From an uncultured Candidatus Poseidoniales archaeon (GTDB lineage: Archaea > Thermoplasmatota > Poseidoniia > Poseidoniales > Poseidoniaceae), in contig CAZNXM010000003.1 of assembly GCA_964577145.1 (NCBI GenBank), forward strand, positions 6,186 through 70,185: 64,000 bases of DNA. The letters are read 5' to 3'. Position numbers and translations under genes: made by a program. Positions 3,452 to 39,197 of this stretch are shown here, one piece after another. Within the stretch, counting starts at the first letter, position 1; each line of letters starts with the position of its first letter. The notes under the pieces were generated by a model, which worked only from the letters and a program-made list of their open reading frames with translations, ran no database searches and had not been told where the DNA came from.

Positions 3452-3525
3452 GGACCAGTAGCTTAGTTGGTTAGAGCACCTGGCTCATAACCAGGCGGTC
3501 GCGGGTTCAAATCCCCCCTGGTCCA
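3452..3525 (+). tRNA. tRNA-Met (anticodon CAT; G1:C72, so not an initiator; could be elongator Met or Ile2-type CAU).
   Basis: GGACCAG acceptor stem, D-arm GCTT-AGTTGGTTA-GAGC, anticodon stem CCTGG/CCAGG with loop CUCAUAA, T-loop GGTTCAAAT, 3' strand CTGGTCC plus discriminator A. No encoded CCA. Confidence 0.85.
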
Positions 3526-3923: not shown

Positions 3924-4354
3924 GTAATCTCACGGCCTTTCGCACCCCAGAATACTCCATGGATTTCTTCGATTGCATCCATTAGTTCCTGTGCGTGAAC
4001 CTCACTGACTTCGACCTTGCATGCAGAACACAACTTTGCAGCCTTCCAAAACATGTCGTGTAGCCCAGGGTTGGATTCAAGGTGCTGTGGCTTGAAGAAA
4101 TCAGTCCAAAGAACAAGTAATTCATCCTTGCACTTCTGTGCTTCTTCTTCCTTGATTGCAGCATAGCGACTCATGGTGTTCAGATATGCTGCCATTGCCT
4201 GTCCGTCATCGGTTGATGGGCATTGCAAGCCGAGCATTTTCTTGGTCATGGATTGAACGGCTTCTCCAGCGATTCTTGCGCTAGCAGGATCATATACTCC
4301 ACATGGTCCATCACAATGTGCTTCAGCCTCAATAAATTTCGTGTATTCGCTCAT
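3905..4354 (-). CDS. sodN: Nickel superoxide dismutase precursor (SodN) with an N-terminal leader.
   Basis: MSEYTKFIEAEA|HCDGPCGVYDPASARI Ni-hook, later VLWTDFFKPQHLESNPGLHDM. This matches the Streptomyces NiSOD HCDLPCGVYDPAQARI ... VLWSDYFKPPHFEKYPELHQL. Start set at the ATG at 4354, preceded by GGGGAG. The longer ORF to 4483 is probably not translated. Confidence 0.9.
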   Translation of the reverse strand: MSEYTKFIEAEAHCDGPCGVYDPASARIAGEAVQSMTKKMLGLQCPSTDDGQAMAAYLNTMSRYAAIKEEEAQKCKDELLVLWTDFFKPQHLESNPGLHDMFWKAAKLCSACKVEVSEVHAQELMDAIEEIHGVFWGAKGREITWIRAS

Positions 4355-4527
4355 GAATAACTCCCCAGTAATCACTCGATGAAGTCCCGGTTCATGAATG
4401 TGTGCTTTGGTGACGTAATAGTTGTGCTGAGGCCCGGTTGAATGCCGTACTGTTCGCCTTTTTGTCAAGGCACGGTCCCACAATAGTTATGAGGGACGCG
4501 AAGGTGGAGTGTATCATAGGTGTAACT

Positions 4528-21935: not shown

Positions 21936-24900
21936 TTGGACAATACCAAGGCCCGTTACAGCATAGCAATGACCAGCATCTTTCTGATGTCTATCTTCGC
22001 AGGAATTGCGATGATTCCATCAGCTTCTGCGGTAAATGAAACCACTTCGGGTACTATCACTGGTACAGAAACTTGGACTGGAGTGATGAATATGGATGGC
22101 GATATTCTCGTCGCCGGTGGAGCCAAATTGATTATCAATGCAGGAACAACCATCAATATTCCAGCAAATAGAAGCATTCACATTCAAGGTTCTATTTGTG
22201 CAGGTGATACTTCATGTGGGGCTACACAGGGAAGTACCGGGTCTCCGGTACGCTTTATTTGGGGTGCTGCTGCTAGTGGACCTGCAAACCAGTCGCGCTG
22301 CTATGTAACAGGAATTTGGAACCCAGACCTCTCATGTGGTTCCGGTATCTACCTTGATTCTACGATAGATCAATCTCTTACTAAATTGAATCATGTTACT
22401 CTCGATGGTGCGTTTGGGATTCCTATTGACATCGATGGTCAAGGGAATTACAAGTACGGTGCATTGATTTTTGATGGCGCTAGTGTACAAACTTCCAATC
22501 TAAATTTCAAGGATATCAACACAACAAATGTACTCGTATTTTCGGGTGCTGCTCCAAAGATTGACGGCAGCACATTTGTCGTTGGTGCCGATGAAAATGG
22601 TTACCACGGTGCTGCGATTCAAGCATATGGTGCTGGTGCAGGATTAGTCACCATGGATGTCACAAATTCTGCATTCACCGGTGCTGAAACCGATTGTGGA
22701 AGCCAGGGTGGTGGGCGCTCAGCTATCTATCTGGAAAATTCGTTCGTGAACATGGACACAATTTCGATTACTCAGAATTCTTATGGTGCTTTCTTACGAA
22801 GCAGTAGTGGTTGGTTGACAAATTCGAATATCGCTACCAAGTGCAATGCGATTGACACGAATTCACACCTTGTTACCAACGAGTTTCGTCACACCTTCGT
22901 GATCAGTGATAACACAATCACTCCTGCTGAAGGCGCAGGTATTACCGCATATGACGGTGCGATTGTATTGGCAGAGCGAAACACTATTTCAGGTGCTTCT
23001 GAAGGTTCAGGCTTTGGAATTCGCTCGTCTGAGGTTGTTATCAACAACAACGTAATTGGTCCTATCGAAGGATGGAATGGCCTGTGGATTTATGGTGAGT
23101 CAGATGTTTCTGCTGAGAATAACACAATTCTCAACACCGGTAGGGAAGCAGTTCTACTCGGTGAATATCACTACAACGACCAAGGTTGGAATGTCCCAGC
23201 GCCATCTAAGGCTCGATTGTATTTCGCAAACAATGTTGTTTCCAACAATACGGGAACATGCAACTCCGAATGGATGTATGGTGGCGATTTCCCTTGCCCT
23301 GCTTTCCATCTATTCATGACTTCTGCAACATTTATCGATAATACCGTGACTAATAATCTCGGAGATGGATTCAGAGTTAAGGGCGGAATTATTAACGCAC
23401 AAGGCAATGATATCGAGGTCGGTGGATTTGCTGCAAACATCTCACTATATGATGATAAGTATGGCAACAAGTATGGAAGTATTGGCTACTTTGCAGAAAA
23501 TACCTATACTAACGCTAGTCAGATTTACAATGTAACCGAGTCGAGAGTTGCAGTCCAATCGGAATACATGCCAGACCCAGGTGCAGGAGAGCAATATCCA
23601 GTTCAGTTGGCATGGTTAGGTGCAGAATGTCCGTGGGCAAATGATGAATGTCTACAAACGCCAACAACTGCTGACATGCCGCCGAGATTTATGCCACTTT
23701 CAATGGAATTGAATGTCAATGCAACAACTTTCACTTTCGCAGATGTACTGAACTTTGATCGCTCAAAGATTCACATTCAGAACCAAAACACTGCTTGGGG
23801 TGTACAAGTCGAACAAGGAGAATTAGTTCGCTATCAAGTAAAGGCAGACAATTCTCAGGTAGCAGACGCCCTTGTCAAAATCAAGGATGCAAATGGCAAG
23901 CCCCTGTACAATATGTCCACAGATGCATATGGATTCACTCAATGGGTAACTCTCCCATCCAACTTCCATATTGATACAAATTGGAATCATCTTGCAAATG
24001 ATCCTGGTGAGGATTCATGTGGTGACGGAAGTGACAATGATGGAGACACATTGGTCGATGGTCAAGACCCTGATTGCCAAACTGGAAGGGAAATGCCATT
24101 GTACAGTGTTTCCGCAAGCAAATTTGGCAAAGGCACATCGGACCACGATTTCACTTTGACTGGAATGGTCGATGAGACAATTCATCTAAGCAATACTGCA
24201 CCTTCGATTTCTATCGACCAAAACGATGGAACATCATTCCCTCGAACTGTTAGTTTGAGCGGTAGTGCACACGATGGAATTTCTGGACCATATTTCAATG
24301 ATTATGATTCATATGTCAAGCAATTTGGATTAGTGAAGCGTGTCGAGATTCAGCCGCATGGCAGTTCGGATTGGTACCTTGCAACCGATACTTCGAATGC
24401 AGATGGTGAAGTTACAGCACAGAATTGGCCTTTCAAGTCTTGGAGTTTTGACTGGGATATGTCCAATCACTTTGAGGAGGATGTTACATTCAGAGTAAAA
24501 TCCTTTGATGGTATCGAAGATTCCATTGTAACAACTAGAGTTTTCAAACTCAACATTAATCCTCCAAATCTTGTGTTGGAGTCACCGATTGATGGTTCTA
24601 CTCACAGTGGTTCTGATATTCTGTTCAGTGGCACCGCAAGCGATGACTATCAGGGAGTTTGGGGAAGCGATATCAGGGACATCTGGTTCCAGGTTGAAGG
24701 TCCAAACAATTACTCTGCTAACTACCCAGCTGGAATGGGTGGTTCAAGCGTGTGGAGCGACAAATGGAATTTCTCATCATTGCCTTCTGGTGATTATACA
24801 TTCACCGTGTGGGCTAGTGATTCAAATTATTGTCATGAGGAAGTTGACGTCTGTACTGCAGATACAATCACAGTGACTGTTGATAATGACAATCGCCTTC

Positions 24901-26210
24901 CAATTGTCCAAGTAAGTGAGCCACTTCCTTTCGATAGTATTCGTGCCTCTGAAGACACAATTATCTCAGGAGTTGCCAGAGACAATGATGGTCAAGTTAC
25001 TCGAGTTGAGATTTCAATTGTCGATTTAGCAAGTGGAATTGAGTTACTTGATGGGCCCGACCCAATTACTAATTTCCAACCAAATGGTGCATGGGCAACA
25101 TATTGGGACACAAGTGATCTAGTTCATGACCAACAGTATGAAATTCATGTAAAGGCATACGATGGTATTGATTATTCAATGATTGAAGTACTGAGAATTG
25201 TCATCGACAATCCATCCGATGCGAACAACATCGCTCCAACATTTTCTCCAGATGGCTGGATTAGCACAATCACAATCTTCTGTGATGAGAAATCGAATGC
25301 TTTCAATAAATGCGGGGTAGGTGCAAGTATTAACCTGCTAGATTTCTTTAATGATTCAGATGGAGTTGGTCCAGATACAAGCCACATGGTTTTCGATATT
25401 TACGACGATCCCTCGACACTAGTCGATGACGATTATGCGTACCACATCCAAATTGATGCTAAGGGTGTTGCAACTTACAACCCTATGAATTCAATGTCCT
25501 CTCACTCTTCTGAGATATCGGAATGGTCTCTCGTAAATGTGATGTTTGAGGCTCGTGATGCACATGATTCTCCAGCATATTCCTATACGATTAATTTCAT
25601 CGTTAAGGGTGTTGAATTTACTGCAGTTAGAGAAGATGCAGGTGCTCTTGTATTCGGTGATGATGCCGAGTTCAGCGGTACAGGTTTGCCGGGAAGTCAA
25701 GTCAAAGCTAGATTACTTTCTGGAAATCTATTACTAAACCAGACTACCGTCAAGGATGATGGAACATGGAATATGGCACTAACAGCTAGCCAATTAGGCG
25801 ATGATGGTGTGTACGATATTTACTTTGAGCAGGATGGTCAATACATCGGCAAAGGTGAAAAGAATGACAATTCAGAGTTCGCATTACAAAATGGATTGAC
25901 TGCAGCATCAGGTATTCCGGGATGGCTACTTGTTGTGTTCGTAGTAATCGGAATAGTAGTTCTTCTTGGTGTAGGTGCTTTCTTCTTCATTGAATTTGAA
26001 GAATTTGACGAAGACGAGGAAGGTTCTGACGAGCAACAAAAGGATGAGGACCCCTATGCATGGGCAAAGGTGAGAGCAGCCGAGCAAGCAGTTGCAGCAG
26101 CAGCACCTGCACCTCAACCTGCTGCCGAGCCTCAGCATCCTGGTTGGCTATGGGACACACAATCAAATCAGTGGGTTCCAGACCCCAATTACCAGCCACC
26201 ACAGCAGTAA
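21936..26210 (+). CDS. Giant secreted surface protein: signal peptide, right-handed parallel beta-helix (PbH1) repeats, Ig-like domains, C-terminal TM and an acidic/Pro-rich cytoplasmic tail.
   Basis: MDNTKARYSIAMTSIFLMSIFAGIAMIPSASA signal. NNT(I/L)xN / NNVxxNN repeats. C-terminal GWLLVVFVVIGIVVLLGVGAFFFI, then DEDEEGSDEQQKDEDP ... AAAPAPQPAAEPQHPGWLWDTQSNQW. Confidence 0.8.
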   Translation: MDNTKARYSIAMTSIFLMSIFAGIAMIPSASAVNETTSGTITGTETWTGVMNMDGDILVAGGAKLIINAGTTINIPANRSIHIQGSICAGDTSCGATQGSTGSPVRFIWGAAASGPANQSRCYVTGIWNPDLSCGSGIYLDSTIDQSLTKLNHVTLDGAFGIPIDIDGQGNYKYGALIFDGASVQTSNLNFKDINTTNVLVFSGAAPKIDGSTFVVGADENGYHGAAIQAYGAGAGLVTMDVTNSAFTGAETDCGSQGGGRSAIYLENSFVNMDTISITQNSYGAFLRSSSGWLTNSNIATKCNAIDTNSHLVTNEFRHTFVISDNTITPAEGAGITAYDGAIVLAERNTISGASEGSGFGIRSSEVVINNNVIGPIEGWNGLWIYGESDVSAENNTILNTGREAVLLGEYHYNDQGWNVPAPSKARLYFANNVVSNNTGTCNSEWMYGGDFPCPAFHLFMTSATFIDNTVTNNLGDGFRVKGGIINAQGNDIEVGGFAANISLYDDKYGNKYGSIGYFAENTYTNASQIYNVTESRVAVQSEYMPDPGAGEQYPVQLAWLGAECPWANDECLQTPTTADMPPRFMPLSMELNVNATTFTFADVLNFDRSKIHIQNQNTAWGVQVEQGELVRYQVKADNSQVADALVKIKDANGKPLYNMSTDAYGFTQWVTLPSNFHIDTNWNHLANDPGEDSCGDGSDNDGDTLVDGQDPDCQTGREMPLYSVSASKFGKGTSDHDFTLTGMVDETIHLSNTAPSISIDQNDGTSFPRTVSLSGSAHDGISGPYFNDYDSYVKQFGLVKRVEIQPHGSSDWYLATDTSNADGEVTAQNWPFKSWSFDWDMSNHFEEDVTFRVKSFDGIEDSIVTTRVFKLNINPPNLVLESPIDGSTHSGSDILFSGTASDDYQGVWGSDIRDIWFQVEGPNNYSANYPAGMGGSSVWSDKWNFSSLPSGDYTFTVWASDSNYCHEEVDVCTADTITVTVDNDNRLPIVQVSEPLPFDSIRASEDTIISGVARDNDGQVTRVEISIVDLASGIELLDGPDPITNFQPNGAWATYWDTSDLVHDQQYEIHVKAYDGIDYSMIEVLRIVIDNPSDANNIAPTFSPDGWISTITIFCDEKSNAFNKCGVGASINLLDFFNDSDGVGPDTSHMVFDIYDDPSTLVDDDYAYHIQIDAKGVATYNPMNSMSSHSSEISEWSLVNVMFEARDAHDSPAYSYTINFIVKGVEFTAVREDAGALVFGDDAEFSGTGLPGSQVKARLLSGNLLLNQTTVKDDGTWNMALTASQLGDDGVYDIYFEQDGQYIGKGEKNDNSEFALQNGLTAASGIPGWLLVVFVVIGIVVLLGVGAFFFIEFEEFDEDEEGSDEQQKDEDPYAWAKVRAAEQAVAAAAPAPQPAAEPQHPGWLWDTQSNQWVPDPNYQPPQQ

Positions 26211-26249: not shown

Positions 26250-28790
26250 GTGGGCGTTGATGATATGGTCGCGAAACCTAAACCAGGGGTACAAGAGAGA
26301 ATACTTCTCCACCTTTCTGATTTTTCGGATTTTATGAATTCGGTTGAGGTTCCGTTCGCACTTTCGCAGATGGGAATTGCAAACGCAGTTGCGATTGCGA
26401 GGTCAAATGTACCTAGGGCAATCGCTGGTCTCAAGGATCAAGGCCTGCTAATTGAGCGGCAAGCACACGTTCAAGGAGTCAGCCGTAAAAGGAAGGCATA
26501 TTTCTTGACCGATACGGGGATGGTACTGGCAGATGAGACTTGGAAGAGACTCCGTGATTTCTCACTGCGGTGCATTTTACCCGATGGTCAAACGATTAGT
26601 TCTACCTTAGGTGAAGTGCAAGACCAACTTCCATTTTCGATGAGGCCGGTTGATGTCATTAGGTATCTGGATGATAATGGAGTTCTCGATGTTCGCTCAT
26701 TATCGGCAGAGCTTGTTGAGAGGGACCTCTCAAAACATGTTGAGAAGCAATTGGTTTCAAGTCTAGGAGATTTACCACGGCTCCGCCATTTCTATGGCAG
26801 ATCTCAGGAACTCGAGAATATGGTCAATCTCTTGGAAGCGAGGTCAACAACATTGATGATTCCCGGAATTGCTGGAATTGGAAAAACAGCAATGGCTGCA
26901 AAAATCATTGAATCATTTATGCATCGCCGTAATCTTCTCTATCATAGATGTCAAGACTGGGATGGTAGCAGGGCACTGTTCGAAAATATTGCTGATTGGT
27001 TATCCAATATCGGTGACCCAATGCTTTCGGAATATATCTCTGCCACACCGGTGCCAAAACCTGGTGATGCAGCTGATTTAATCATTGACGCACTCGATAA
27101 TACTCCGGCACTAATCGTGATTGATGATTATCACAAAGTGAGTGACAAGGCATTGCATCAGATGGTACAAGCATTGTCTAGAGGCCTTGTTGATAGCGAA
27201 GGTGATGTAGGACTGGTGATTTTCTCGCGTTCATTCAAGCCTGTAGTGCCAATGAAGGATGCAGAGGGGAAAATTGTGAGCCTTGTTCTCCCATTGGAAG
27301 GCCTTGATCAAGATTCATGTAGAAGTCTTCTCTCCACTTTCGAAGATTTGGATAATGAGACATTGCTATACATTCATTCCCTATCAAGAGGCCACCCCTT
27401 AGTTCTGGAATTAATCAACCGCGGTGCTTCGGCAGGTGCATTCCATGAAACATTAGAGAATTATGTAAATATCGAGATTTTCTCTAAATTGAGTGGGGAA
27501 CAGAAACGCCTCCTTGGAGTTCTTTCTGTTTTCCGTGAACCTATTCCATTAGCAGCACTTACCGAGCAGGATTTGAACATTGATGAATTAGATTCCCTCG
27601 TTGAGGCTGGACTTGCTAGGCAAGCTGATTCTGATGCATATGACGTACACGATTTGATTCGTGAGTTCTTACTTCAGAGTTTAGACCACCAGACGAAAGA
27701 AGAATTGCACAATAAGGCTGTTCTGTGGTATGAAAAGCAGGGCAGTGGGCCACTGATTGCTATGGAATTGATCTACCATTTAATCAGTAGTTCTCGGCAT
27801 GAGGACGCTGGTGAAATCATTGTTCAACAAGGAAGAAATCTGATCAAAGAAGGGTACATAGAATTACTTGGATTGTTAGAAGCGATTGACTTGTCGGAGA
27901 TTCAAGAGGAGAATGCTTGCAGAATTGATTGTCTCAAGGGCGAGGTTCTTTCACTACTGGGGAGATTTGCTGAGGCTGAATCTGCATTCAATTCAGCCCG
28001 TGCTCCTGCAGAAGCAGCGGGAATCCAAGATGTAATTGCCGACCTTCATTCCAACCTTGCAGATATCGCATTAAAGCGTGGTGAAACTGAATCTTCATTG
28101 ACAATGCATCGTAATGCGCTTGAATTATTCATTCAAATGGGTGATGCAGTCGGCGCTGCACGCTCTTACAATAATATGGGCTACATCATGCGTCGCGGTG
28201 GAGATAAAGTCAAGGCTCTTGAGGCATATGGTGAGGTTGAAGCAATACTTTCAGATGATAGTTCTGAGGAACTTATTCCAGCACAATTGATTCTTGCTCG
28301 AGCACTGATTGACCTTGGCGAAGTAGACCGAGCCAGAGACCACGCTCTCAATGCGTACGAAGCATCGTCTGATGGTGCTGACCTGATTCTACACGCAAGG
28401 TCGCGAGCAGTTCTTGGTAGATACTATGCCAAGGTAGGAGACTCAGACCTAGCATTGCATCACTATTCGGACGCACTAGAGGTAATGGGAGAGGCAGGAG
28501 ACCCTCATGCACTTGTTGAAGTCAGTATTCTTCTCGGTGAAGTTCTACAGGATAGTGGGCGTGTTGATGAGGCACTCGAGAGATATCGCGCAGCCCTTCT
28601 AATCGCCGAAGGAAACGATCTAAGGATGCAAATCGGAGAGTTGCTTTCACGTCTTGGTGGTGTAGCTCCCGACCGGCAGAGACGAATGGAATATCTTCAA
28701 AGAGCACTTTCGGTATTCAGAGAATTAGGTGCACAAGCAAGGATGCGTGAGGTCCAGATGATGGTTCACACCGCCGTGATGGGACGCTGA
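26250..28790 (+). CDS. STAND-class NTPase with an N-terminal winged-helix domain, NB-ARC-like P-loop ATPase and C-terminal TPR repeats (putative signal-transducing regulator).
   Basis: wHTH ALSQMGIANAVAIARSNVPRAIAGLKDQGLLIE. Walker A LMIPGIAGIGKTAMA. Walker B ALIVIDDYHKV. C-terminal TPR-like repeats (ARSYNNMGYIMRRGGDKVKALEAY ...). GTG at 26250 or ATG at 26265 as start. Confidence 0.75.
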   Translation: MGVDDMVAKPKPGVQERILLHLSDFSDFMNSVEVPFALSQMGIANAVAIARSNVPRAIAGLKDQGLLIERQAHVQGVSRKRKAYFLTDTGMVLADETWKRLRDFSLRCILPDGQTISSTLGEVQDQLPFSMRPVDVIRYLDDNGVLDVRSLSAELVERDLSKHVEKQLVSSLGDLPRLRHFYGRSQELENMVNLLEARSTTLMIPGIAGIGKTAMAAKIIESFMHRRNLLYHRCQDWDGSRALFENIADWLSNIGDPMLSEYISATPVPKPGDAADLIIDALDNTPALIVIDDYHKVSDKALHQMVQALSRGLVDSEGDVGLVIFSRSFKPVVPMKDAEGKIVSLVLPLEGLDQDSCRSLLSTFEDLDNETLLYIHSLSRGHPLVLELINRGASAGAFHETLENYVNIEIFSKLSGEQKRLLGVLSVFREPIPLAALTEQDLNIDELDSLVEAGLARQADSDAYDVHDLIREFLLQSLDHQTKEELHNKAVLWYEKQGSGPLIAMELIYHLISSSRHEDAGEIIVQQGRNLIKEGYIELLGLLEAIDLSEIQEENACRIDCLKGEVLSLLGRFAEAESAFNSARAPAEAAGIQDVIADLHSNLADIALKRGETESSLTMHRNALELFIQMGDAVGAARSYNNMGYIMRRGGDKVKALEAYGEVEAILSDDSSEELIPAQLILARALIDLGEVDRARDHALNAYEASSDGADLILHARSRAVLGRYYAKVGDSDLALHHYSDALEVMGEAGDPHALVEVSILLGEVLQDSGRVDEALERYRAALLIAEGNDLRMQIGELLSRLGGVAPDRQRRMEYLQRALSVFRELGAQARMREVQMMVHTAVMGR

Positions 28791-29261
28791 TTAGAAATTA
28801 GGGCCACTGATGGATATCCTAGTGATGCCATTTTCATGTATTACCCATATTTGCGTTGTACCTGAGAGTGATATCGAGCCTTCATAATCTCCGGAGCCCG
28901 TCCCCGAAATACTGAGCGTCGTATCGAGTTCATCCTCAAAATGGTCTAATGATAATCCATCTTCACTAAGTGAAAGAGTGAATAAACTTTCATCGGCCTC
29001 GGTTAATCTCCATTCAACAGATTCAGCATATTTCACATCTTCACCTTGTCTACTTGCGCTATCAGCGCGTTCAACCGCAGCAGCAATATCAGCCATGTTC
29101 GCATCAATGGCGGTTTCGTTCCATCTTTGCCTAGTTGAAGTTTCGATTTCAAAAGTCCAAACTGCAAACATTGAAAGTAATAGAACTCCGAGTAGGAATG
29201 TAAAGACATAGCCTAATTCTGTCGATGCGGCCTCTACATCATTCTTGAGTTTCCCGTTCAT
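28791..29261 (-). CDS. Small protein with a class-III (archaeal type IV pilin-like) signal peptide; putative minor pilin (third gene of the operon).
   Basis: MNGKLKNDVEAASTELGYVFTFLLGVLLLSMFAVW N-terminus. Its start overlaps the stop of 29258..31405 by 4 nt. Confidence 0.55.
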   Translation of the reverse strand: MNGKLKNDVEAASTELGYVFTFLLGVLLLSMFAVWTFEIETSTRQRWNETAIDANMADIAAAVERADSASRQGEDVKYAESVEWRLTEADESLFTLSLSEDGLSLDHFEDELDTTLSISGTGSGDYEGSISLSGTTQIWVIHENGITRISISGPNF

Positions 29262-31405
29262 ATTCTAGCCTCCGTAACATGGGCTTCAATACTACTTATT
29301 TGCAAATTGAATTGGATTGGGAGACCACCTGTGTGCCACACCGCTTCACTTGGACCATGTGAAGGGATAGGAACCCATCCTGTATAGTCGTCAAGTAAAT
29401 CCATTCTTCCTGGAGTGACAATCCAATCCTCTGATGCCTCGAGGTCTTGAGAGGACCAAGAGGCAATAGCATCACCATATGGCCCAGCCCATCCTCTGCG
29501 TACTTCGTATGCAGTAGTTGATGCAAGGCTTTCTCTGTTGGTTAATTCCAAATTTAAATTCATGACTCCTGCTCCAGAGACACTATTCGAAGTTGGATGC
29601 ATTGATGGGATTGTAGCAGAGAAGCGTGGACCTGGGCCCCCTCTATCGGTTGGACCTTGGAGGATTAGAGGTTTCAGTTCTGGATGATTGGTTACTACGG
29701 CACCAGCAGACCATGCGACTTCTAAGCCACTAATAGATGAATCAAATTCATAAGTAAAACGAGAAAGATGGAAGGCCCAAGCGGTTGCAATTGTAGAATG
29801 GCTCGAATCACCAATATTGCCGATAAGATCGATGCCTATACTCGCCGGATGAGCTCCACTTTTCCACGCAGCGATTATGCCTCCCTCAAGAAGACCATTC
29901 AAATTCGCCCAAGGTAACTGGACCTCAATCCAACCTGAAGCAGTAGTGTCTACCATGATGCAACGAGGAGAACCATCGTGTCGTAGTGAAAGCAATCCGG
30001 AATCTCCATCATCACGAATAACCGTTAGTGCATCTCCGTCAGTACTTGTCAATGTATCATCGGATGCTGGTGTTATTGTGGTCGATGGAGCATCGGTGTC
30101 AAGTGTTCCATTTGCAGAACTCATATTCCACGAAGTTTCCATGCCAGACAGTTGCACCTCATTGACAGAACCTTCCTCTAGGAAAAATTCCGAACCTGAA
30201 AGGCGACCAGTATCGCTTGCTCCAAGCAAATCTAGCCCATTTGTTCCAGAAGCCCAAGACAGCATTACCGCTTGGCTTGATTCGATAATAGCTGCATCAA
30301 CGAGTCCCGCTGCAGGCCAGTCTACTTCGATTGTTGAATCTGCGGGAACTGAGGTTCCACCATTGCGCCAAGTAATAGTTGCAGAATTATCGCTTGGGTT
30401 TGACAGAACCAATTTACCATCTACGAATGGTGGGATAAATCGTTTTGACAACATCGAACCATCACTACCTGGCCACGCAGTCCTTCCTTCATCAGAGAAC
30501 ATTACCATCAAACGAGCATCGCTATCTGAAAATACTTCGAGTAGTGTATCCTCGGTAGCTGTGAAAGTGCGGGTCCAATAATTTGCCGAATGCAAAGTAG
30601 TCGGATGGACTTCCACTTGCGTTCCTGAGTCACCTTCCATTGCCCATTGCACCATCAGATCATCCTCTGCAAGCATGTGAATTGTGGTAGTACCCGTTGC
30701 AAGTGGAATCGCCCAATGTCTGCCCTCTCCGGTTGCAGGCTCTGCTTTGGAGGGTGGATGAATCGAAACTCCACCATCACCTTGGATTGCAAAACCTGTT
30801 AGTTCATGGCTTGAAGAAAATTCTTCATCGCTGTCGATAACTAATACTTCGCCTACCTTCAGTGAAAAGACATCCTCGCCCTGTGAGATTTCAACTGGAC
30901 CTAATGGAATCGCCAATCCATGTGCAGGTGTGATGATGTATGAATCGGCATTAGAATAGGGTGTATAGATGAAATCTCTGTCGGGGCCAAGTCGCATATC
31001 CTCTGTACATATTGCTTGAACATGGCCCTCTGGGTGGCGAATTTCCATATTATTGTCGAGAGTTAGGGCATCCCTAATCCGGAAGGAATTATCCTCGTAC
31101 CATGATGCTGAATACCACATCCCACCACGGACTCGGTCCCAACGCATTTCACCATCTACCGGAATTAACTCATATTCCGTCTTATCACCAGGCATCCCCG
31201 ATTCGGAGAGAATTGTGACTTCATGACCAAAACTGGTTAACTGCGCTTCCATATCATGCCGCTTGACAGAACCTTCCAATTCTTGAATAACAGGCATCAT
31301 GGAAAGCAACATCATTCCAATGATGGAAATAACTCCACCAAAGAGTAAGACCGTAGCGACAGCAGCACTCACTGCATCATCATCTCTTCGCAATTCTCCT
31401 TTCAT
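29258..31405 (-). CDS. Large (715 aa) protein with an archaeal class-III / DUF1628-type pilin signal peptide and an unknown extracellular domain.
   Basis: MKGELRRDDDAVSAAVATVLLFGGVISIIGMMLL matches the archaeal pilin N-terminal pattern (D/E)(R/D)AVSxV(I/V)G plus hydrophobic helix. Overlaps the upstream gene by 4 nt. Confidence 0.7.
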   Translation of the reverse strand: MKGELRRDDDAVSAAVATVLLFGGVISIIGMMLLSMMPVIQELEGSVKRHDMEAQLTSFGHEVTILSESGMPGDKTEYELIPVDGEMRWDRVRGGMWYSASWYEDNSFRIRDALTLDNNMEIRHPEGHVQAICTEDMRLGPDRDFIYTPYSNADSYIITPAHGLAIPLGPVEISQGEDVFSLKVGEVLVIDSDEEFSSSHELTGFAIQGDGGVSIHPPSKAEPATGEGRHWAIPLATGTTTIHMLAEDDLMVQWAMEGDSGTQVEVHPTTLHSANYWTRTFTATEDTLLEVFSDSDARLMVMFSDEGRTAWPGSDGSMLSKRFIPPFVDGKLVLSNPSDNSATITWRNGGTSVPADSTIEVDWPAAGLVDAAIIESSQAVMLSWASGTNGLDLLGASDTGRLSGSEFFLEEGSVNEVQLSGMETSWNMSSANGTLDTDAPSTTITPASDDTLTSTDGDALTVIRDDGDSGLLSLRHDGSPRCIMVDTTASGWIEVQLPWANLNGLLEGGIIAAWKSGAHPASIGIDLIGNIGDSSHSTIATAWAFHLSRFTYEFDSSISGLEVAWSAGAVVTNHPELKPLILQGPTDRGGPGPRFSATIPSMHPTSNSVSGAGVMNLNLELTNRESLASTTAYEVRRGWAGPYGDAIASWSSQDLEASEDWIVTPGRMDLLDDYTGWVPIPSHGPSEAVWHTGGLPIQFNLQISSIEAHVTEARI

Positions 31406-32445
31406 CCACTCACCTCTATTCTTTGGAGGTCAATTTCAAGGTCGATCATCGTATATCCACCATCTACGGTGAATCCATCACTACCACTTGCACGTAGCCA
31501 TGGACAAATCCCATTGAATTCTTCAAGTGTCCCCGATGCACGGTGCAGATTGTATTCGGTCAACCAATTCTCATGCATTTGTGGAGTGATTGTGGAATCA
31601 AGTGAGGAGTCATAGGTGAAGCGGAAATGCCACGCATCGCCACTGAAGAGGTTTATTGGGCCCTTTGAAACTAAGTCAATTCCCATTGAGCGACCAGTTG
31701 GAACCGTGCCGTTAATTGTAACATCTCGCAACAGCATCGAGGCTCTAACCGTCCCGTCTACTAGTTCGTCTAGAACTACACTGGGGCGCTTGGACAAGGC
31801 CCATGGTGCATCTTCTGTTTTGTCAGCACGGCCATCGTTAACCATGGCGATTCCATGCTCTCCACCTTTGATATTCGTAACGACTTGTAAACCTGATAAG
31901 GTGATACTCGCATAGCGGTGAATCGGAGTGCCATCCGCATCGAATACCGTGATGATAACAAGGTCCTTGACCTCAAGTTCATGTTCGACGAACACAGCCT
32001 CATGAGAAGGTGTGAATGAATGACTTTCCTCGCCATTTTCTGTCCAAATTAATATCGATGCAGCGGTTTCATTTATGGCTAAAATCGAAAACGAAGACGA
32101 ACTATTCCAGGTGACAGTCACACGTTCATAGTCAACAAGGTCAGCTGCAAGTGTCCAAGTTTCCACATTGACAAGTGGTGCGACATTACTACTTGCTGCG
32201 GGAATAGTAGTCCGGATTCCAGTGTTTTCAGGCATTGGTCCCGTTAGAGCAATTCTATCCTCTAGTCTATCCGCAATACCATTTGCATTGGCCCATGAGG
32301 TATTATCTTGGAAATCTTCGATATAGGGTGTGAGCATCAAAAACACTCCACCCATTATCGTGATTACCATTGCCAGAAGCATGACTACTCCGATGACCTC
32401 GCTAACAGCGAAGTCATTTTCACGCTGGGCACGGCGTCTCATCAA
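31402..32445 (-). CDS. Protein (347 aa) with an archaeal class-III / DUF1628-type pilin signal peptide; first gene of the three-gene operon.
   Basis: MMRRRAQRENDFAVSEVIGVVMLLAMVITIMGGVFLML. Confidence 0.7.
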   Translation of the reverse strand: MMRRRAQRENDFAVSEVIGVVMLLAMVITIMGGVFLMLTPYIEDFQDNTSWANANGIADRLEDRIALTGPMPENTGIRTTIPAASSNVAPLVNVETWTLAADLVDYERVTVTWNSSSSFSILAINETAASILIWTENGEESHSFTPSHEAVFVEHELEVKDLVIITVFDADGTPIHRYASITLSGLQVVTNIKGGEHGIAMVNDGRADKTEDAPWALSKRPSVVLDELVDGTVRASMLLRDVTINGTVPTGRSMGIDLVSKGPINLFSGDAWHFRFTYDSSLDSTITPQMHENWLTEYNLHRASGTLEEFNGICPWLRASGSDGFTVDGGYTMIDLEIDLQRIEVSG

Positions 32446-32503
32446 TCCTGAGGAGAGAATCGTCCGTTCTTATGTCTTGGGCCCATGGGAGCCCTTACAG
32501 GGC

Positions 32504-33319
32504 TCATAGGTGCAAGGAAATTCTGCTTCGGGCATCAATTTCACTTTCATTGGCGCTTAGGTGATGAGTGAATTCCGGTCCGTCCTGCAAAGAGATTCTG
32601 ATATCTCCTTCGAATATATCTTCCAAGTGATAGAGCACTGTTGACTCAGCCAGATGAGGAAGATTATTTCTCTCGGAAAGGTGGGTCAAAACAATTGATT
32701 TTGTCTCAGCGGTAACCACGTTGGAAAGGAACTCCCCAGTCTGGTGGTTTGACAGGTGTCCGCCACGACTTCCTATCCGCTCTTTGAGCCGCATTGGATA
32801 TGGCCCATTCCACAATCTATTGTGGTCGTAATTTGCCTCGATTGAAATGTGTTGACAACCGTGGAGATGAGTAACTAATTCCTCAGTCCATGACCCAAGA
32901 TCTGTAACTACTGCAGCTCGCTCTTTGCCATTACTGGCGATGAAAGCTACATTGTCTGCGCCGCTATGTGGGACCGGCACCGGGAGAAGCGCTAATTTGC
33001 CGATTTCCAAGGCCTCAAGAGATTCAAAAATTCTTACTTTGGAGAGGTCGAGATTGAGTGCGGCTGCAGTTCGGTCATTGCACAAAATTGGGATGTCAAA
33101 TCTGCGTTGAGCAATCGCTGCTCCGCCACCGTGGTCACCGTGGTGATGTGTTATCAAAATCGCATCAATTTCGTGCGGTTGAATCTCCATTAATGAGAGC
33201 CTTCTTTCGAATTCTCGCCCGCTAAAACCTTGGTCGATGATGACTTTTGACTCCCCACATTCAACCAAAGTAGCGTTACCGCGGCTCCCGGTTCCAAGGT
33301 GGGTGACTGACATCGGCAT
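32504..33319 (-). CDS. MBL-fold metallo-hydrolase (metallo-beta-lactamase superfamily).
   Basis: ILITHHHGDHGGG (HxHxDH) plus downstream His/Asp ligands. Start set at MPMSVTHLGTGS (33319). The ORF is open to 33376. Confidence 0.8.
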   Translation of the reverse strand: MPMSVTHLGTGSRGNATLVECGESKVIIDQGFSGREFERRLSLMEIQPHEIDAILITHHHGDHGGGAAIAQRRFDIPILCNDRTAAALNLDLSKVRIFESLEALEIGKLALLPVPVPHSGADNVAFIASNGKERAAVVTDLGSWTEELVTHLHGCQHISIEANYDHNRLWNGPYPMRLKERIGSRGGHLSNHQTGEFLSNVVTAETKSIVLTHLSERNNLPHLAESTVLYHLEDIFEGDIRISLQDGPEFTHHLSANESEIDARSRISLHL

Positions 33320-33497
33320 GGTTAACCCAAGGAGACCAGCGCGTTGAGCCCTTGAACCCATCTCATGTTGAGTCACTATTCCGGCGTATTTTCACGGAAC
33401 CCAGAAGACTCCGTAGGAGTCATCTGTCGGAACAGTACTCCATCATCCTATTAAGGCAGGTTCAGTCGTTCATGACTGTCTGGGTGCATTTGCGCCC

Positions 33498-36400
33498 GTG
33501 GTGGTTTCAATGCGACGTTCACAGTCAACCCTACTAATGACAATCATAGTGTTGTCTAGTCTCTTCGTCATGAGCCAGGCTCCAGCCATCTCAAACGTGG
33601 CTACAGTTCATCCCGATGATACCTTTGAGGAAAAGCCACCACAGACCGATTCCGATGGCGATAAAATCCCAGATGTACATGAGAATTTATTTGCAGAATG
33701 GGTGAATTGGACAGCTGTAGATGGGCGCCCAGTCACGATGGAAGGCCTTGACCGTGATGATGCGACAGATGCAGACCTCGACCGTGATAGAGATGGTTTG
33801 AATTCTACTGAAGAATATTGTTGGCCATATCCTGCCAATTGCACTGATGCTGGTTTTCCCCGTGGGCTTACAGGGATAATCAATCCAGAAGATGGAGAGA
33901 GGATTTACCTTGACCCTAGAGTTTCAGATACCGATGGCGATGGAATGCCTGATGGTTTTGAAATCGCAATGTGCGAACGACTTTGGTATTACGATGAAGA
34001 CGAAATGAGATTCGAATGCGGTGAATTCAATCCACTAAATGCAAGTGATGCTGATTTGGACCCTGATGGGGATGGTTTCGATGTAAATCGCGATGGCTTT
34101 ACCTCATTGGGAGAATTACTCACCTCATCTGAGGAATATTCGTATGGTTCACCGGATAATTGGACGAATGAACTCGATGGACTACGTTGCCTATCTACCG
34201 ACCCCACACCTGCATTGCTCGATGCTTGGCCATTTATCACATCGGGATCAAACTCAACCCATTTTGTGAATATTATCGATGCTTGTTTCACCAATGGAAC
34301 AGGGTATTTCGATGACAATATTTGGGTTGGAACCGATCCACTGAATGATGATAGTGACCGTTTTAATTGGGATGGTTACAAACATCGCAGGCTCCATCCT
34401 TCTTTGGGTGATGGAATGATTGATGGATGGGAAATTCACTTTGGCTTAGACCCCCTAAACCGCTCAAATGCACTAGTGGATCTCGATTCGGACGGATGGG
34501 ATTACAATCGTGATGGTTTCATTTCGGTAGATTCTGCACGTACTGCAACAGCGATGGCAATAGGTGAAGAATTGTCCACACTCGAAGAGTATACCGTGCA
34601 CTTTGATGATGGAAATACGGTGAAGTCTGGAATGCGTTCAGTCAAATTGGACTCAAATGGCGGCACATATCTGGAGTATCTACTCACTCCCGAGGCTACT
34701 GCCTCTGACAATATCTCTATTCTCCACCACGATGTTAGGGAAATCTCATCTGTGGATGGACAACTTTGGGTTGGTTCGCGCCTCGGCGTGACAATAATCG
34801 ACTTTGATGCTGTCACTTCAGTCGATCACTCATTACCAATGGGACATAATCTCAACGACATGATCATTCTCGATGATGATGTGGTAATGCTGACCGATGG
34901 AGGCATTTGGGTAGCACCGAGGTCGAGTGGTTCCTTGTCAGATATTTCGACATGGGAATTATTTTCACCAGGGGTCAGAATGACTGCTGGAACCCAATTA
35001 TTGGAAACGGGATCATCGGTACGAGTTGTGGCCATAGGTAATGGTGGAGAGGGTGGAATTCTAACTCTCGATGGCACACCTTCATTCAGCACAAGCCTTG
35101 GAGATGGCATTGTTAATTCTATGAGAGATGGCAATGCAACTGCAACTGAAGTTATACACGTTGATGTTGCAGGTGGCCCTCTTACACTATATGTCGGAAC
35201 AGATGTTGGATTATTCCGTGTAGAAACCGCATCTGCACAGGATGATGCAACTCCTAATTGGTTATTCTATCACCACCCCGAACCATCGGTTATTGCAACA
35301 AATATCGTAGACCTCCGAGCCTTTGGTTCACAAGGAAATGGTAATCCTGCGCATGTGCAAGCACTGGTTGCCGATGGGCCTGATGGTGCAGCACATCAAG
35401 TAGTTTGGATTGGAACCCCATCAGGATTACACCGGGTAGATTTGGTTTCTGGAGCAATTGAACATAGTGGCCTTCTGGAACACCCCGGAATCGATGGTAG
35501 TACCATTTCCGAAGCAAACGACATACATTCAATTCAACCAACAGATAATGAATTGCTTCTTGGTTCTGGCTGGGGACTATGGTCACTATCTGGTGACCAT
35601 GCAGCAGTGTATGGAGCAACTGATCAAGAATGGATTCCGGGGACAATCGCTGCAATAGCTAACCACGATATTTCAGGTGCTGCAACGGTCTTCGTGGGGA
35701 TAGATCCCGGCATGTATTCCAATCTGGAATTAATGGATCCAATGGCCAATGATTCTGATTCTGATGGAATGATTGATGGCTGGGAAGTGCAGTATGGACT
35801 GGACCCAACCGACCCATGGGATGCATTCCTAGATGCCGATGGTGATGGCGTAAACCTTGATGACGACCCAATACAAGAACGTGCTTGGAGAAATCTTGAC
35901 GAATTCCGTTATACCGCCCGCACACCAAATGGCTATGACGCTACTGACCCACGTCTGGTAGATACCGATGCTGATGGTGTTGGAGATGGTGCTGAATATT
36001 TCGGCCTGTATCATGAATACACTCCATTATGGTGCCATTATCTCAATTCATATTCCTTTGAGCATGTATGCGGTGACGCTGCAGGTAATGCCGCTAATGC
36101 AACATATCTCGCATCGATGGGAGTTGATGCTGGAAGTGACCCTACCAATACCGATAGTGATGGCGATGGTATTCCTGATGGTTGGGAAGTTATCCATAGA
36201 AGGTGGATAGGCTCCTCATTCACTGGTTCGAATAATTGGACGATGGACCCAAATCGTGCTGAAGATGCACTTTGGGACGCAGATGGTGATGGATTATCGA
36301 ATCTCTGCGAGTATCAATGGACGCAAATTCGCTTACTCGGCATTGCTGATGAACTCCTTGAAAGCCACTTTGAAACCGCAGCTGCGGCTGCTAATTGGGT

Positions 36401-39197
36401 CGAAGCCGATCCAAATAATGTTGATTCAGACGGCGATGGTCTACCAGATGGATGGGAGGCTAGAAATGCGTGTACTTGGGATATTTCTAGAGTTGGAATC
36501 AATCCATTGAATGGCTCTGATGCATTTGAAAATCCTGATGGTGATGGATTTGATATTAATCGAAACGGGGTAATCGAGGATAACGAAGCCTTTGTCAATT
36601 GGCTTGAATACAACGTTAAGGATGCACTATTCGATGGCAACCAAAGCCTTGATGGCGACGAAATCCCGGAAGGATTCTCTACCGACCTTTTCAGGAATAT
36701 ATCCGATTGGGGAGTTCCTGAAGGTCTATTCGGAGACGGTATAGAAACGGGCGACCCAACTAGTGCTGATAGCGATTCAGATGGCATGCCTGATGGATGG
36801 GAAATCTGGTTTGCTCGTTGGGATATTCTAGGAGGAGACTGGACTTTGGACCCGCTCGATTCTTCAGACAGATGGGGCGATTCTGATGAAGATGGAATGG
36901 CTAATTGGGAGGAATATAATGCAATAGATCCTTCGATGAGTGAGACCAATTCCAATAGAAGTAGCCCACAATGGTATGTGACAACTATCGGAAGTGGGTA
37001 CACATTGCAGCAGTGGGCTGGTATCCTAAACACAGAGTCATTTGGTTCATTTATCGACCAAGAAGTTGTGAATAACACAGGATATACCGCAGATCCAACC
37101 AACCCCGATACCGATGGAGACGGATTCCTTGATGGACTTGAACTGATGTTCACTTCGTGGAATCTTACCGCCCAAACTTGGACGTTGAATCCACTTGTAG
37201 CAGGTGATGGCCAATTTGATTCAGATAATGATGCATTAACTGATGCGCAGGAGTTTTCTTTGGCAACTGAAAATCCGAATAATGGAATCTTGCACCCTGG
37301 TGACGCGCCGCTAATGCATGAGGACGGGGATATTAACGACCCAACTCAGAAGGCACAGCGCGTTTACACGATTATCCTAGACAAAGGCTCACGTGCAAAA
37401 CGCCATCTCGATGCATTTACTGAATGGCAATCAACGGGTATTCCAAATAATTTCATTGGAACTTTGATGGGAATAACTGACCCAACAATAGCGGATACCG
37501 ATGATGATGGGATGATAGATGGGTACGAATACTGGTTCACAAGTTGGGATCTTGATGATAACCGATGGTCAATGAATCCTCTAATCGATTCTGACCAATG
37601 GCTGGATAGTGATCAAGATTCGGTTGACTGTAATGGGGATGGCAATCTTTCACTCGAAGAGCAATACACCAATAAGCGCGAATATGAATCCCGAATATAC
37701 GGTAAGTACTCACAGAGACATACTACGGGTTCAGGGTTGATTGGATACGGTGATGATGCAATTGATGCCTATATCGAAGAGGGGAATAGCGATGCTGAAG
37801 CAAGGCTTGCAATTTTCACTACATTTTGGGGCAAAGATGCGGTTTCGACAAGCCGAGTAGACATGATCAATGATGCAGATTCAAATACATTCAATCGAAC
37901 ATTATTCGGAATTTCCGATCCAACTCATGTAGATTCAGATCTCGATGGAATTGAGGATGGATGGGAATATTGTTACTCGACTTATGGTATGCCTGACCCA
38001 ACCACACAAAATCACTGGTCGAGTAACCCAGTAAATCCATTCGATGTCGATTATGACCCTGATAGTGATGGCTGGTATGGACGAACTTCCTTCGATACTC
38101 CAGCTACTCAGGGCGAGTGGGATTCTCGTGTATTCACACCTTCCGGCATCGTCATTCAAAATGGAATCGGCGATTTACCATTCACCAATATCATGGAGTA
38201 CCTCAATGGAACGAGGCCGGATACCAACGATTCGGATTCAGATTCGGTGACATATAATACCGAAGAAATTGGAGGAGTGGTCCAATCTCATCTTCGTGAT
38301 TGGAATCTTTCTGATGGACGAGAGGTCTTCAAGTATGGTATCAACCCGATGGACAATGATTCAGATGGCGATATGCTACCAGATTGGTATGAATATCATT
38401 TAGGCTGGAATGAATCTAATGATAATTACACTTCCAGAATGCAAATCGAAGTTCAGTGGATTGATCCTGCTACTGGTGGCTCATGTGATTCTTCTACCAC
38501 CTCTTGTCGCCCACTTTCACTTTCAGGTGGAACATTAGGTAGGCCTGATTTAGGTTGGACTTGGGCAACAATGGATCCGAGCGATGCCCTGGATGCGAAT
38601 GATGATCCAGATCAAGATGGAAACTGGGACTGTTCTGGTGCGACATGTGAATATACGCCATACACAAATTTCATGGAATTTTATGCTGTTGCAGATCCTA
38701 ATTTAGATTCGCCAACTGCAGTTAGACTTTCAGGTGAAACACATGAGGGCACGCCCATTACTGAGTGGTGGCAGTTCCGAGCATTTACACTGCATTTAGG
38801 ACAATTTGACGAGGCTACTTCGAATTATTTGAAGATGAATAAAGCAAATTTTGATGATACCCGTTATGTGCTAATTGTTGATGATAATGACATAGATTTC
38901 CTTGTACTTGATGCAGGAGATGATACGACTATCTGCTCTGGTGATATTACCGATGACTGGGACCTATATTACACAGGAAACACAAACCGTGCTCCTGCAT
39001 TAGAAGTTGGTGAACATGAGTTCGGTTGGTGGCTGCTTGACTTTGATGATGACCATATCGCAGAGGGGAGCGATCCGTATAATTGGGATACAGATGGCGA
39101 TTGGCTTGTTGATTGGTTCGAAGTAAAGGATGACGAAGAGGATGGAATCCGTGGCGATTCATCGCCGATTAGATACGACTCGAGGAATACGGCTTGA
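33498..39197 (+). CDS. Giant (1899 aa) secreted protein with about 24 calcium-binding TSP3-like DxDxDG repeats and a beta-propeller (Reg_prop-like) segment. No C-terminal anchor.
   Basis: Signal MRRSQSTLLMTIIVLSSLFVMSQAPA. Repeats DTDGDGMPDGFE, DSDSDGMIDGWEVQYGLDP, DSDGDGIPDGWEV, DTDDDGMIDGYEYWFTSWDLDDNRWSMNPL and others. Propeller-like GQLWVGSRLGVTIIDFD / LYVGTDVGLFRVE / VVWIGTPSGLHRVD. Confidence 0.85.
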   Translation: MVVSMRRSQSTLLMTIIVLSSLFVMSQAPAISNVATVHPDDTFEEKPPQTDSDGDKIPDVHENLFAEWVNWTAVDGRPVTMEGLDRDDATDADLDRDRDGLNSTEEYCWPYPANCTDAGFPRGLTGIINPEDGERIYLDPRVSDTDGDGMPDGFEIAMCERLWYYDEDEMRFECGEFNPLNASDADLDPDGDGFDVNRDGFTSLGELLTSSEEYSYGSPDNWTNELDGLRCLSTDPTPALLDAWPFITSGSNSTHFVNIIDACFTNGTGYFDDNIWVGTDPLNDDSDRFNWDGYKHRRLHPSLGDGMIDGWEIHFGLDPLNRSNALVDLDSDGWDYNRDGFISVDSARTATAMAIGEELSTLEEYTVHFDDGNTVKSGMRSVKLDSNGGTYLEYLLTPEATASDNISILHHDVREISSVDGQLWVGSRLGVTIIDFDAVTSVDHSLPMGHNLNDMIILDDDVVMLTDGGIWVAPRSSGSLSDISTWELFSPGVRMTAGTQLLETGSSVRVVAIGNGGEGGILTLDGTPSFSTSLGDGIVNSMRDGNATATEVIHVDVAGGPLTLYVGTDVGLFRVETASAQDDATPNWLFYHHPEPSVIATNIVDLRAFGSQGNGNPAHVQALVADGPDGAAHQVVWIGTPSGLHRVDLVSGAIEHSGLLEHPGIDGSTISEANDIHSIQPTDNELLLGSGWGLWSLSGDHAAVYGATDQEWIPGTIAAIANHDISGAATVFVGIDPGMYSNLELMDPMANDSDSDGMIDGWEVQYGLDPTDPWDAFLDADGDGVNLDDDPIQERAWRNLDEFRYTARTPNGYDATDPRLVDTDADGVGDGAEYFGLYHEYTPLWCHYLNSYSFEHVCGDAAGNAANATYLASMGVDAGSDPTNTDSDGDGIPDGWEVIHRRWIGSSFTGSNNWTMDPNRAEDALWDADGDGLSNLCEYQWTQIRLLGIADELLESHFETAAAAANWVEADPNNVDSDGDGLPDGWEARNACTWDISRVGINPLNGSDAFENPDGDGFDINRNGVIEDNEAFVNWLEYNVKDALFDGNQSLDGDEIPEGFSTDLFRNISDWGVPEGLFGDGIETGDPTSADSDSDGMPDGWEIWFARWDILGGDWTLDPLDSSDRWGDSDEDGMANWEEYNAIDPSMSETNSNRSSPQWYVTTIGSGYTLQQWAGILNTESFGSFIDQEVVNNTGYTADPTNPDTDGDGFLDGLELMFTSWNLTAQTWTLNPLVAGDGQFDSDNDALTDAQEFSLATENPNNGILHPGDAPLMHEDGDINDPTQKAQRVYTIILDKGSRAKRHLDAFTEWQSTGIPNNFIGTLMGITDPTIADTDDDGMIDGYEYWFTSWDLDDNRWSMNPLIDSDQWLDSDQDSVDCNGDGNLSLEEQYTNKREYESRIYGKYSQRHTTGSGLIGYGDDAIDAYIEEGNSDAEARLAIFTTFWGKDAVSTSRVDMINDADSNTFNRTLFGISDPTHVDSDLDGIEDGWEYCYSTYGMPDPTTQNHWSSNPVNPFDVDYDPDSDGWYGRTSFDTPATQGEWDSRVFTPSGIVIQNGIGDLPFTNIMEYLNGTRPDTNDSDSDSVTYNTEEIGGVVQSHLRDWNLSDGREVFKYGINPMDNDSDGDMLPDWYEYHLGWNESNDNYTSRMQIEVQWIDPATGGSCDSSTTSCRPLSLSGGTLGRPDLGWTWATMDPSDALDANDDPDQDGNWDCSGATCEYTPYTNFMEFYAVADPNLDSPTAVRLSGETHEGTPITEWWQFRAFTLHLGQFDEATSNYLKMNKANFDDTRYVLIVDDNDIDFLVLDAGDDTTICSGDITDDWDLYYTGNTNRAPALEVGEHEFGWWLLDFDDDHIAEGSDPYNWDTDGDWLVDWFEVKDDEEDGIRGDSSPIRYDSRNTA

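Follow-up and report, generated by a model that had tools for sequence, protein, structure and literature searches.

The 64,000-nucleotide stretch of Candidatus Poseidoniales DNA analysed here (contig CAZNXM010000003.1; hereafter the window) carries on its minus strand three consecutive genes, p1, p2 and p3, whose products begin with pilin-type N-termini, and we propose that these products are stoichiometric minor-pilin-like subunits, p2 (and p1) being modular pilins, which would be processed and assembled in trans; the evidence leans toward this reading, if only slightly. The type IV pilin-like p1 is listed as an open reading frame (ORF) of 347 aa (31402-32445), the 'modular' pilin-like p2 has 715 aa (29258-31405), and the small pilin-like p3 has 156 aa (28791-29261). 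An earlier note, made from the sequence of this DNA alone, had described the three genes as a translationally coupled operon, and the ORF coordinates and sizes, the two 4-nt overlaps and the N-termini that it quoted all proved exact on re-check.

The start and stop codons of p1 and p2 overlap by 4 nt (ATGA, 31402-31405), as do those of p2 and p3 (ATGA, 29258-29261), and these overlaps are kept in 53 of 61 loci for p1/p2 and in 53 of 60 for p2/p3. A Shine-Dalgarno-like AGGTGA (31410-31415, minus strand) lies within the 3′ end of p1, 4 nt 5′ of the p2 ATG, and a Shine-Dalgarno-like GAGG (29269-29272, minus strand) lies within the 3′ end of p2, 7 nt 5′ of the p3 ATG. Across loci, a GGAGG-type motif of this kind lies within the gene that precedes p2 (45/48) or p3 (64/69), and it is rare before p1 (10/49). 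The conserved overlaps and internal ribosome-binding motifs thus support the translational coupling that the earlier note had claimed. The p1 ORF opens with TTG-ATG, and because its orthologues begin at ATG, the true start is likely the ATG at 32442, with a product of 346 aa. A promoter-like element, GGGCCCAAGA-CATAAGAA (32467-32484, minus strand), begins about 32 nt upstream of this ATG; elsewhere it reads GGT[GC]AA..CATAA and is conserved in divergent loci, and the strict pattern at a fixed distance from p1 was found in 28 of 77 loci, the background rate being 0.002 per 160 nt. We infer that it is a TATA/BRE-type promoter giving rise to a leaderless or very short-leader p1-p2-p3 mRNA. A 234-aa antisense ORF that sits wholly inside the conserved p2 gene is most likely a by-product.

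The three products share one layout, namely a charged n-region, a small residue and a hydrophobic helix of about 20 residues, which is conserved order-wide. With the presumed cleavage site marked by an arrow, their N-termini read MMRRRAQRENDF-A↓VSEVIGVVMLLAMVITIMGGVF in p1, MKGELRRDDD-A↓VSAAVATVLLFGGVISIIGMMLL in p2 and MNGKLKNDVE-A(A)↓STELGYVFTFLLGVLLLSMFAVW in p3, and the corresponding order-wide motifs are [D/E]x-A↓VSE[VI][ILM]GV[VS]MLLAMV, [DE][DEG]-A↓V[ST]AA[VI]ATVLLF[GA]GV and [GA]A↓[SA]TE[LI]GY[IV]FTFLLG. Pairwise identity in the helix core is 78-80% in each family, versus 48-59% overall and 31-45% in the n-region (for p1, 80% versus 57% overall); the ectodomains drift to 31-60% identity, and the N-termini stay near-invariant across the Marine Group II (MGII) divisions MGIIa and MGIIb. 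Profile-profile comparison finds the three families alike only within the N-terminal 36-48 residues, a pattern as in the pilins of one system. A plain signal anchor would not need a conserved small residue together with a [VSA][ST][EA] junction motif, which speaks for the pilin-like reading. Only these three of the 33 ORFs in the window have a pilin-type N-terminus, and at about 90 loci no other gene up to 10 kb to either side of the trio has one of Pilin_N type. The one other class III candidate, read from an internal start at 5920 of a plus-strand ORF (5548-6822), begins MKVRRIDYVKLG-STAVAWVVIAGIITSASF... and is only loosely class III-like; it has 300 aa and no Pfam match, and fails the strict motif. 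In two divergent loci (L078 and L080) the N-terminus of p2, at about 10019, reads AVSAVIGTVLLFAGV, nearer to the canonical Pilin_N AVSxVIG than the usual AVSAAVATV, which hints that it may reflect an ancestral form.

The best Pfam matches of p1-p3 are uncharacterised archaeal families, DUF7289 (PF23960), DUF7287 and DUF7266 (PF23928), and our search found no publication mentioning DUF7289 or DUF7266. The window p1 scored 26.5 bits against DUF7289 (cut-off 27; profile positions 2-54 of 238) and 21.8 bits against Pilin_N (PF07790; cut-off 25.2), there at the N-terminus only, and p2 scored 15.2 bits against DUF7289 (positions 2-71); the likeness of p1 and p2 to DUF7289 is thus confined to the N-terminal 54-71 positions, about a quarter of the model, and neither protein matched its 238 positions at full length. 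The match of p3 to DUF7266 (21.1 bits, cut-off 27.6) spans nearly all of the protein, with positions 5-141 of 145 aligned. The orthologues give stronger signals: Pilin_N was detected in 25 of 35 p1 orthologues (E ≤ 0.01, best 4.9e-6) and DUF7289 in 30 of 35 (best 5.6e-8), precomputed Pfam annotation assigns PF07790 to many p1 homologues, and DUF7266 was detected in 14 of 34 p3 orthologues (best 3e-7). Since the DUF7266 model also matches 18 of 35 p1 orthologues, much of its signal would come from the shared helix. The claim of class III signal peptide-like N-termini is borne out in this way by a nearly invariant motif order-wide and by Pilin_N, DUF7289 and DUF7266 matches in orthologues, while the proposed search against DUF1628/Pilin_N succeeded only in part, for p1 orthologues, the window p1 being sub-threshold and the Pfam scan giving no Pilin_N match for the window p2 or p3. 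In a PDB sequence search with the family profiles, p1 met a Pilin_N protein (8fj5_A) over the N-terminus only and without significance (E 0.52); tblastn of p1 against plasmids returned noise only and met no haloarchaeal plasmid. The p1 ectodomain is presumably beta-rich. The last 30 or so residues of p3 (28791-28890; GxIxLxGxxxIWVVxxxGxTxIxxxRP) resemble one repeat of a GH18-associated triple-repeat domain (7zoh/7zoi; E 1.6e-4 over the entire protein, with no significance for single repeats), a likeness that is probably spurious and due to a generic beta-hairpin motif.

The archaellum components ArlF and ArlG have archaellin-like hydrophobic N-termini as well, and p1-p3 might be accessory proteins of the archaellum of this kind, acting as stator or S-layer-binding components. 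Some JGI records do label p1 homologues (P0141, P0227) 'FlaG/FlaF family flagellin', and, according to Rinke et al., every Poseidoniaceae genus and half of those in the Thalassarchaeaceae have an archaellum operon (PMC6461757). Against this stand the absence of any archaellin or FlaF/FlaG family match at E ≤ 1 among p1-p3, the absence of arl genes near the trio at any locus, and the different sizes (347 and 715 aa) and architecture, so that we hold this reading to be very improbable and, for want of a family match, reject it.

In p2, the pilin-like N-terminus is joined to a large ectodomain. The AlphaFold 2 model of p2 (mb971ee0c317c; pLDDT 88, pTM 0.85) consists of a 61-residue N-terminal helix (residues 9-69), a beta sheet (75-136) and then beta-sandwich modules, of which those at about 145-460 are variable, followed by a conserved C-terminal beta domain at about 460-715; this confidence was reached only when divergent representatives were added to the alignment, as 37 close homologues alone gave a pLDDT of 56.6 and meaningless Foldseek matches. 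The long N-terminal helix followed by a beta-sheet domain is the pilin architecture, and the structure prediction suggested by the earlier note has in this respect returned a helix with an all-beta ectodomain. Identity within the family is 58% in the N-domain, 34% in the middle (145-460) and 54-58% in the C-domain, and the middle, as the most variable part, would suit a surface for binding or adhesion. The family keeps Cys133 and Cys482 almost without exception, which suggests a disulfide that would staple the C-terminal part of p2 to its pilin-like domain. The p2 model met only generic jelly-roll, cupin, PA14 and tail-fibre-like matches in Foldseek searches of PDB and BFVD (TM ≤ 0.22), and a sequence search of PDB found nothing for p2. 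A profile search of 1.84 billion (1.84e9) representatives gave 124 matches, about 14 of them full-length (610-768 aa) and the rest fragments, and the relatives with a named source or an examined context are Poseidoniales. The family spans 675-775 aa. The earlier note had called a 715-aa pilin-like protein unusual; it is uncommon, and the claim is overstated insofar as the euryarchaeal minor pilins of arCOG02911 have about 250-550 aa (PMC4858521) and modular pilins are well known from bacteria (PMC9934059).

A large ectodomain behind such an N-terminus is also found in the class III signal peptide (SPIII) functional proteins, such as those of the Saccharolobus 'bindosome', in which a class III signal peptide and hydrophobic helix precede the ectodomain, the genes lie apart from the type IV filament (TFF) loci, and the proteins are proposed to dock in a generic TFF base. 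Among archaea, SPIII proteins whose C-terminal domain is large and functional are widespread (bioRxiv 10.64898/2026.04.22.720090). By this route p1-p3 could have a ligand-binding or uptake role, which would suit the description of MGII as proteolytic, particle-associated heterotrophs (PMC6461757) and the S8 protease encoded near the trio. We consider this unlikely, as the known SPIII functional proteins have solute-binding domains and ABC transporter neighbours, whereas neither a solute-binding-protein domain nor another Pfam domain was found in p1-p3, no ABC transporter gene is adjacent, and the fold searches with p2 gave only generic beta-sandwich matches.

The trio is syntenic in 84 of 84 loci examined by tblastn and in 7 more divergent loci (about 90 in total), and the three genes, their overlaps and their neighbourhood recur in MGIIa and MGIIb loci alike. 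The same gene island surrounds even those p2 relatives that have diverged furthest (33-36% identity), including one in a Thalassarchaeaceae (MGIIb) genome, and the trio therefore occurs in both Poseidoniales families. All of the p1 homologue clusters (n = 157) are Poseidoniales-type among the matches listed, and the p1 and p2 homologues are named Candidatus Poseidoniales or Poseidoniaceae. The window itself comes from an archaeon of the Poseidoniaceae (MGIIa), and its nearest species representative is a Poseidoniaceae metagenome-assembled genome (MAG) with 92% identity. Compared with the closest relative, p2 has 199 synonymous-only versus 57 replacement codons and p3 has 48 versus 8; as judged from these codon changes, p2 and p3 are expressed-type genes under purifying selection. 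A contig titled 'Verrucomicrobiales bacterium isolate ARS100' (NZEQ01000036.1, locus L036) carries the complete Poseidoniales island with full synteny and a p2 of 46% identity, and has probably been mis-binned or belongs to a mislabelled MAG.

No window ORF of at least 150 aa matched T2SSE/FlaI, T2SSF/FlaJ or an A24-type peptidase, and the only multi-transmembrane (TM) proteins of the window are CarS and an AglB fusion. The statement of the earlier note that the window holds no assembly ATPase, platform or prepilin peptidase accordingly stands, and it extends to the related loci, as none of the three, nor a candidate major pilin, was found within ±10 kb of about 90 of them. In archaea, pilin genes lying away from ATPase loci are the rule, and ATPase/TadC modules use pilins in trans (PMC4858521). 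In a Red Sea metatranscriptome, the euryarchaeal genes with the highest expression included a pilin/archaellin-like one of the DUF1628 type (PMC5069720), and the MGII archaellum operon, which comes without chemotaxis genes, has been proposed to serve in adhesion (PMC6461757).

Based on these findings, we propose that one short-leader or leaderless transcript would be translated in a coupled manner into p1, p2 and p3, and coupling on one transcript would yield the three products in roughly equal amounts. A PibD/FlaK-type prepilin peptidase encoded elsewhere would cleave the leaders at the small residue (A or G), and the three conserved helices could then pack into a small heteromeric "minor pilin" complex, which a type IV filament machine, likewise encoded elsewhere, would extrude; at least an archaellum-type ArlI/ArlJ operon is present throughout the Poseidoniaceae. 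The complex may be located at the tip or at the base of a filament, or may form a short surface pseudopilus, with p2 as the effector that displays its all-beta ectodomain of about 650 residues outside the cell, and with the modular p1 and the small p3 as adaptor or stabiliser subunits. The tip adhesin or non-canonical filament suggested in the earlier note is likewise an inference.

Several observations weigh against the assembly of p1-p3 as minor pilins in trans. The machinery and a candidate major pilin are missing in cis, the matches of the window p1, p2 and p3 all lie under the Pfam gathering thresholds, and neither the fold nor the PDB sequence searches found a recognisable adhesin or lectin domain in the p2 ectodomain. 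In this genome, p2 alone (DAVSAA) passes the strict FlaFind/Szabo-type pattern ([KRDE][GA][ALIFQMVED][ILMVTAS]x3), so that the FlaFind check proposed earlier, run as this pattern, succeeded for p2 and failed for p1 and p3. The mismatch of p1 is an F at -2, where orthologues carry R, L, H, S, P or Q, and many of these read RAVSEV, which would satisfy the pattern; p3 (EAASTE; [GA]A[ST]TE) misses it at one position, the last. The trio is moreover an order-wide core locus within an envelope island, and it is present in MGIIb, half of whose genera reportedly lack the archaellum operon, which leaves its dependence on the archaellum machine unproven.

Much of this evidence is shared with the main rival, which we regard as possible and as clearly the less probable of the two, namely that p1-p2-p3 form a fixed membrane-anchored envelope complex and no filament, the helices being permanent anchors, cleaved or uncleaved. 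Such a complex might, for example, be a stalk that tethers or organises giant glycoproteins or an S-layer-like coat independently of a type IV filament ATPase. Its case lies in the setting of the trio, a core element throughout the order within a syntenic island of envelope genes that includes a 3160-aa AglB/STT3 fusion, an S8 protease, a 1424-aa beta-helix protein and TSP3-type proteins of 1.8-1.9 thousand aa; in the lack of machinery or a major pilin in cis at every locus examined; in the occurrence of the trio in Thalassarchaeaceae, a family with archaella reportedly missing from half of its genera; and in the imperfect strict class III motifs of p1 and p3. However, the best-conserved parts of the three proteins are the pilin-type junction and the helix, with a small residue at -1 and polar residues at +2/+3, which a simple anchor would not need, and Pilin_N matches occur among the p1 orthologues. 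Poseidoniales genomes are also highly syntenic overall, and membership of the island may therefore say little about function.

The order of the island is one and the same in all 84 loci compared by tblastn of the window proteins: giant surface proteins, then MBL, p1, p2 and p3 in one direction, and then, in the opposite direction, STAND/TPR, beta-helix, S8 protease and AglB/STT3 fusion genes. Three very acidic giant surface proteins border the operon on both sides at every locus. In the window these are a 1424-aa beta-helix/Big_7 protein with a C-terminal TM anchor (21936-26210, plus strand), a 1899-aa protein with bacterial TSP3 (thrombospondin type 3) repeats (33498-39197, plus strand) and a 1787-aa protein without domain match (39299-44662, plus strand), and they match the 'thrombospondin' adhesion genes noted for MGII (PMC6461757). 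The AglB/STT3 fusion (10929-20411, plus strand) begins with about 12 TM segments and has its STT3/AglB oligosaccharyltransferase domain at residues 392-800. It further has an extracellular region of more than 2300 aa with CarboxypepD_reg, SdrD_B and SpaA-like domains, and its length, 3146-3202 aa across MGIIa and MGIIb, is unusually large for an AglB fusion.

Directly at the operon, a gene for a metallo-β-lactamase (MBL)-fold hydrolase (32504-33376, minus strand) ends 58 nt upstream of p1, and a gene for a STAND/TPR NTPase (26250-28790, plus strand) has its stop adjoining the last base of the p3 stop (28791), so that both the 58-nt distance and the convergent arrangement with zero spacing given in the earlier note agree with the coordinates. 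One locus (L085) has no MBL gene upstream of the trio, and since p1 has a conserved promoter-like element of its own, the MBL hydrolase probably lies outside the operon as a separate unit. A perfect hairpin, GAGCCC-TGTAA-GGGCTC (32489-32505, minus strand), spans the MBL stop codon and is followed by no T-run; it is conserved in 26 of 87 loci as judged by a regular expression, with a compensatory variant, AAGCCC...GGGCTT, in locus L001, and may be a 3′-end or regulatory RNA element. The 846-aa STAND protein combines a winged helix-turn-helix, a STAND NTPase (AAA_16) and TPRs, as in a MalT-like putative regulator, and could regulate the island; its gene stops 0-8 nt from the p3 stop, or overlaps it by 4 nt, in nearly all loci, and is split into ORFs of 570 and 286 aa in one (L004).

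These two neighbours recall an AVAST type 1 defence module, of which the trio might be a part. The MBL has weak matches to Avs1a (NCBIfam E 0.0046; PADLOC 13.5 bits), and the STAND protein has weak matches to STAND, PDC and TPR models. All of these scores fall far under the cut-offs and cover generic MBL motifs or TPRs only, the MBL and STAND genes stand on opposite strands with the operon between them, the MBL gene is missing in the locus named above, and the genes are core and syntenic order-wide, unlike defence islands. With Avs1a at 15.8 bits against a cut-off of 420 and this order-wide core distribution, an anti-phage role is extremely improbable and can be taken as effectively refuted.

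Archaeal markers of the window are the genes for CDP-archaeol synthase, an archaeal-type ribosomal protein (S13/S15 N-terminal and S15 domains) and a DUF5591 protein. Its further genes include those for a nickel superoxide dismutase (Sod_Ni, E 7e-44; 3905-4483, minus strand), a pyroglutamyl-peptidase (C15) fused to NUDIX (46296-47225, plus strand) and one tRNA (3452-3525).

Among known systems, the euryarchaeal clade-2 minor pilin sets (arCOG02911 with PilA-family pilins; Haloferax volcanii PilB3/PilB4; PMC4858521) come close to the proposed minor-pilin-like set, as they too have a class III signal peptide-like N-terminus of DUF1628/Pilin_N type and all-beta ectodomains of variable length, and their several pilin-like genes stand in tandem, often apart from the ATPase/TadC module, and are used in trans. 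The likeness is one of description and not of arCOG assignment, and there are differences: the p2 family exceeds the arCOG02911 size range, its ectodomain has no detectable relative in sequence or fold, the trio stands beside an ATPase/TadC module in none of about 90 loci, and the Pfam matches are confined to the helix (p1 and p2) or sub-threshold (p3). The nearest functional analogue is the Streptococcus sanguinis PilA-PilB-PilC complex, in which three co-encoded minor-pilin-type subunits, one small and two modular, are proposed to form a quasi-helical complex that fits only the filament tip and presents effectors there (PMC9934059). That system is bacterial, its genes lie within a pil locus together with the machinery, and its modules are recognisable (vWA, ConA-like lectin) whereas those of p2 are not; sequence homology is not expected, and a tip location of the archaeal trio would be pure analogy. 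Further bacterial parallels are the GspH-I-J-K and PilVWX-FimU initiation complexes. The p1, p2 and p3 families are lineage-specific and new, and their kind is already known from class III proteins, scattered pilin sets and modular pilins.

In the surface ocean no archaea are more abundant than the Poseidoniales, none of which has ever been cultured; their attachment to particles and phytoplankton as well as the make-up of their envelope have been deduced from genomes only. It is conceivable, as a rather speculative and bolder extension of the findings, that all Poseidoniales possess the trio as a core organelle of their envelope, a pilin-derived 'pseudopilus' or stalk of three subunits that has no dedicated type IV filament ATPase, is kept even in lineages free of archaella, and tethers or presents the giant glycoprotein coat; in a less radical version, the trio would be the long-missing adhesive tip complex that makes the chemotaxis-less MGII 'archaellum' a particle-attachment organelle. 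As scattered pilin genes and modular pilins were known before, the trio does not overturn current views on type IV filament biology. The p2 ectodomain, with its 650 residues, is confidently modelled and yet unprecedented, and with the trio as a whole there are now concrete candidates for the MGII surface apparatus, at its adhesive or structural end.

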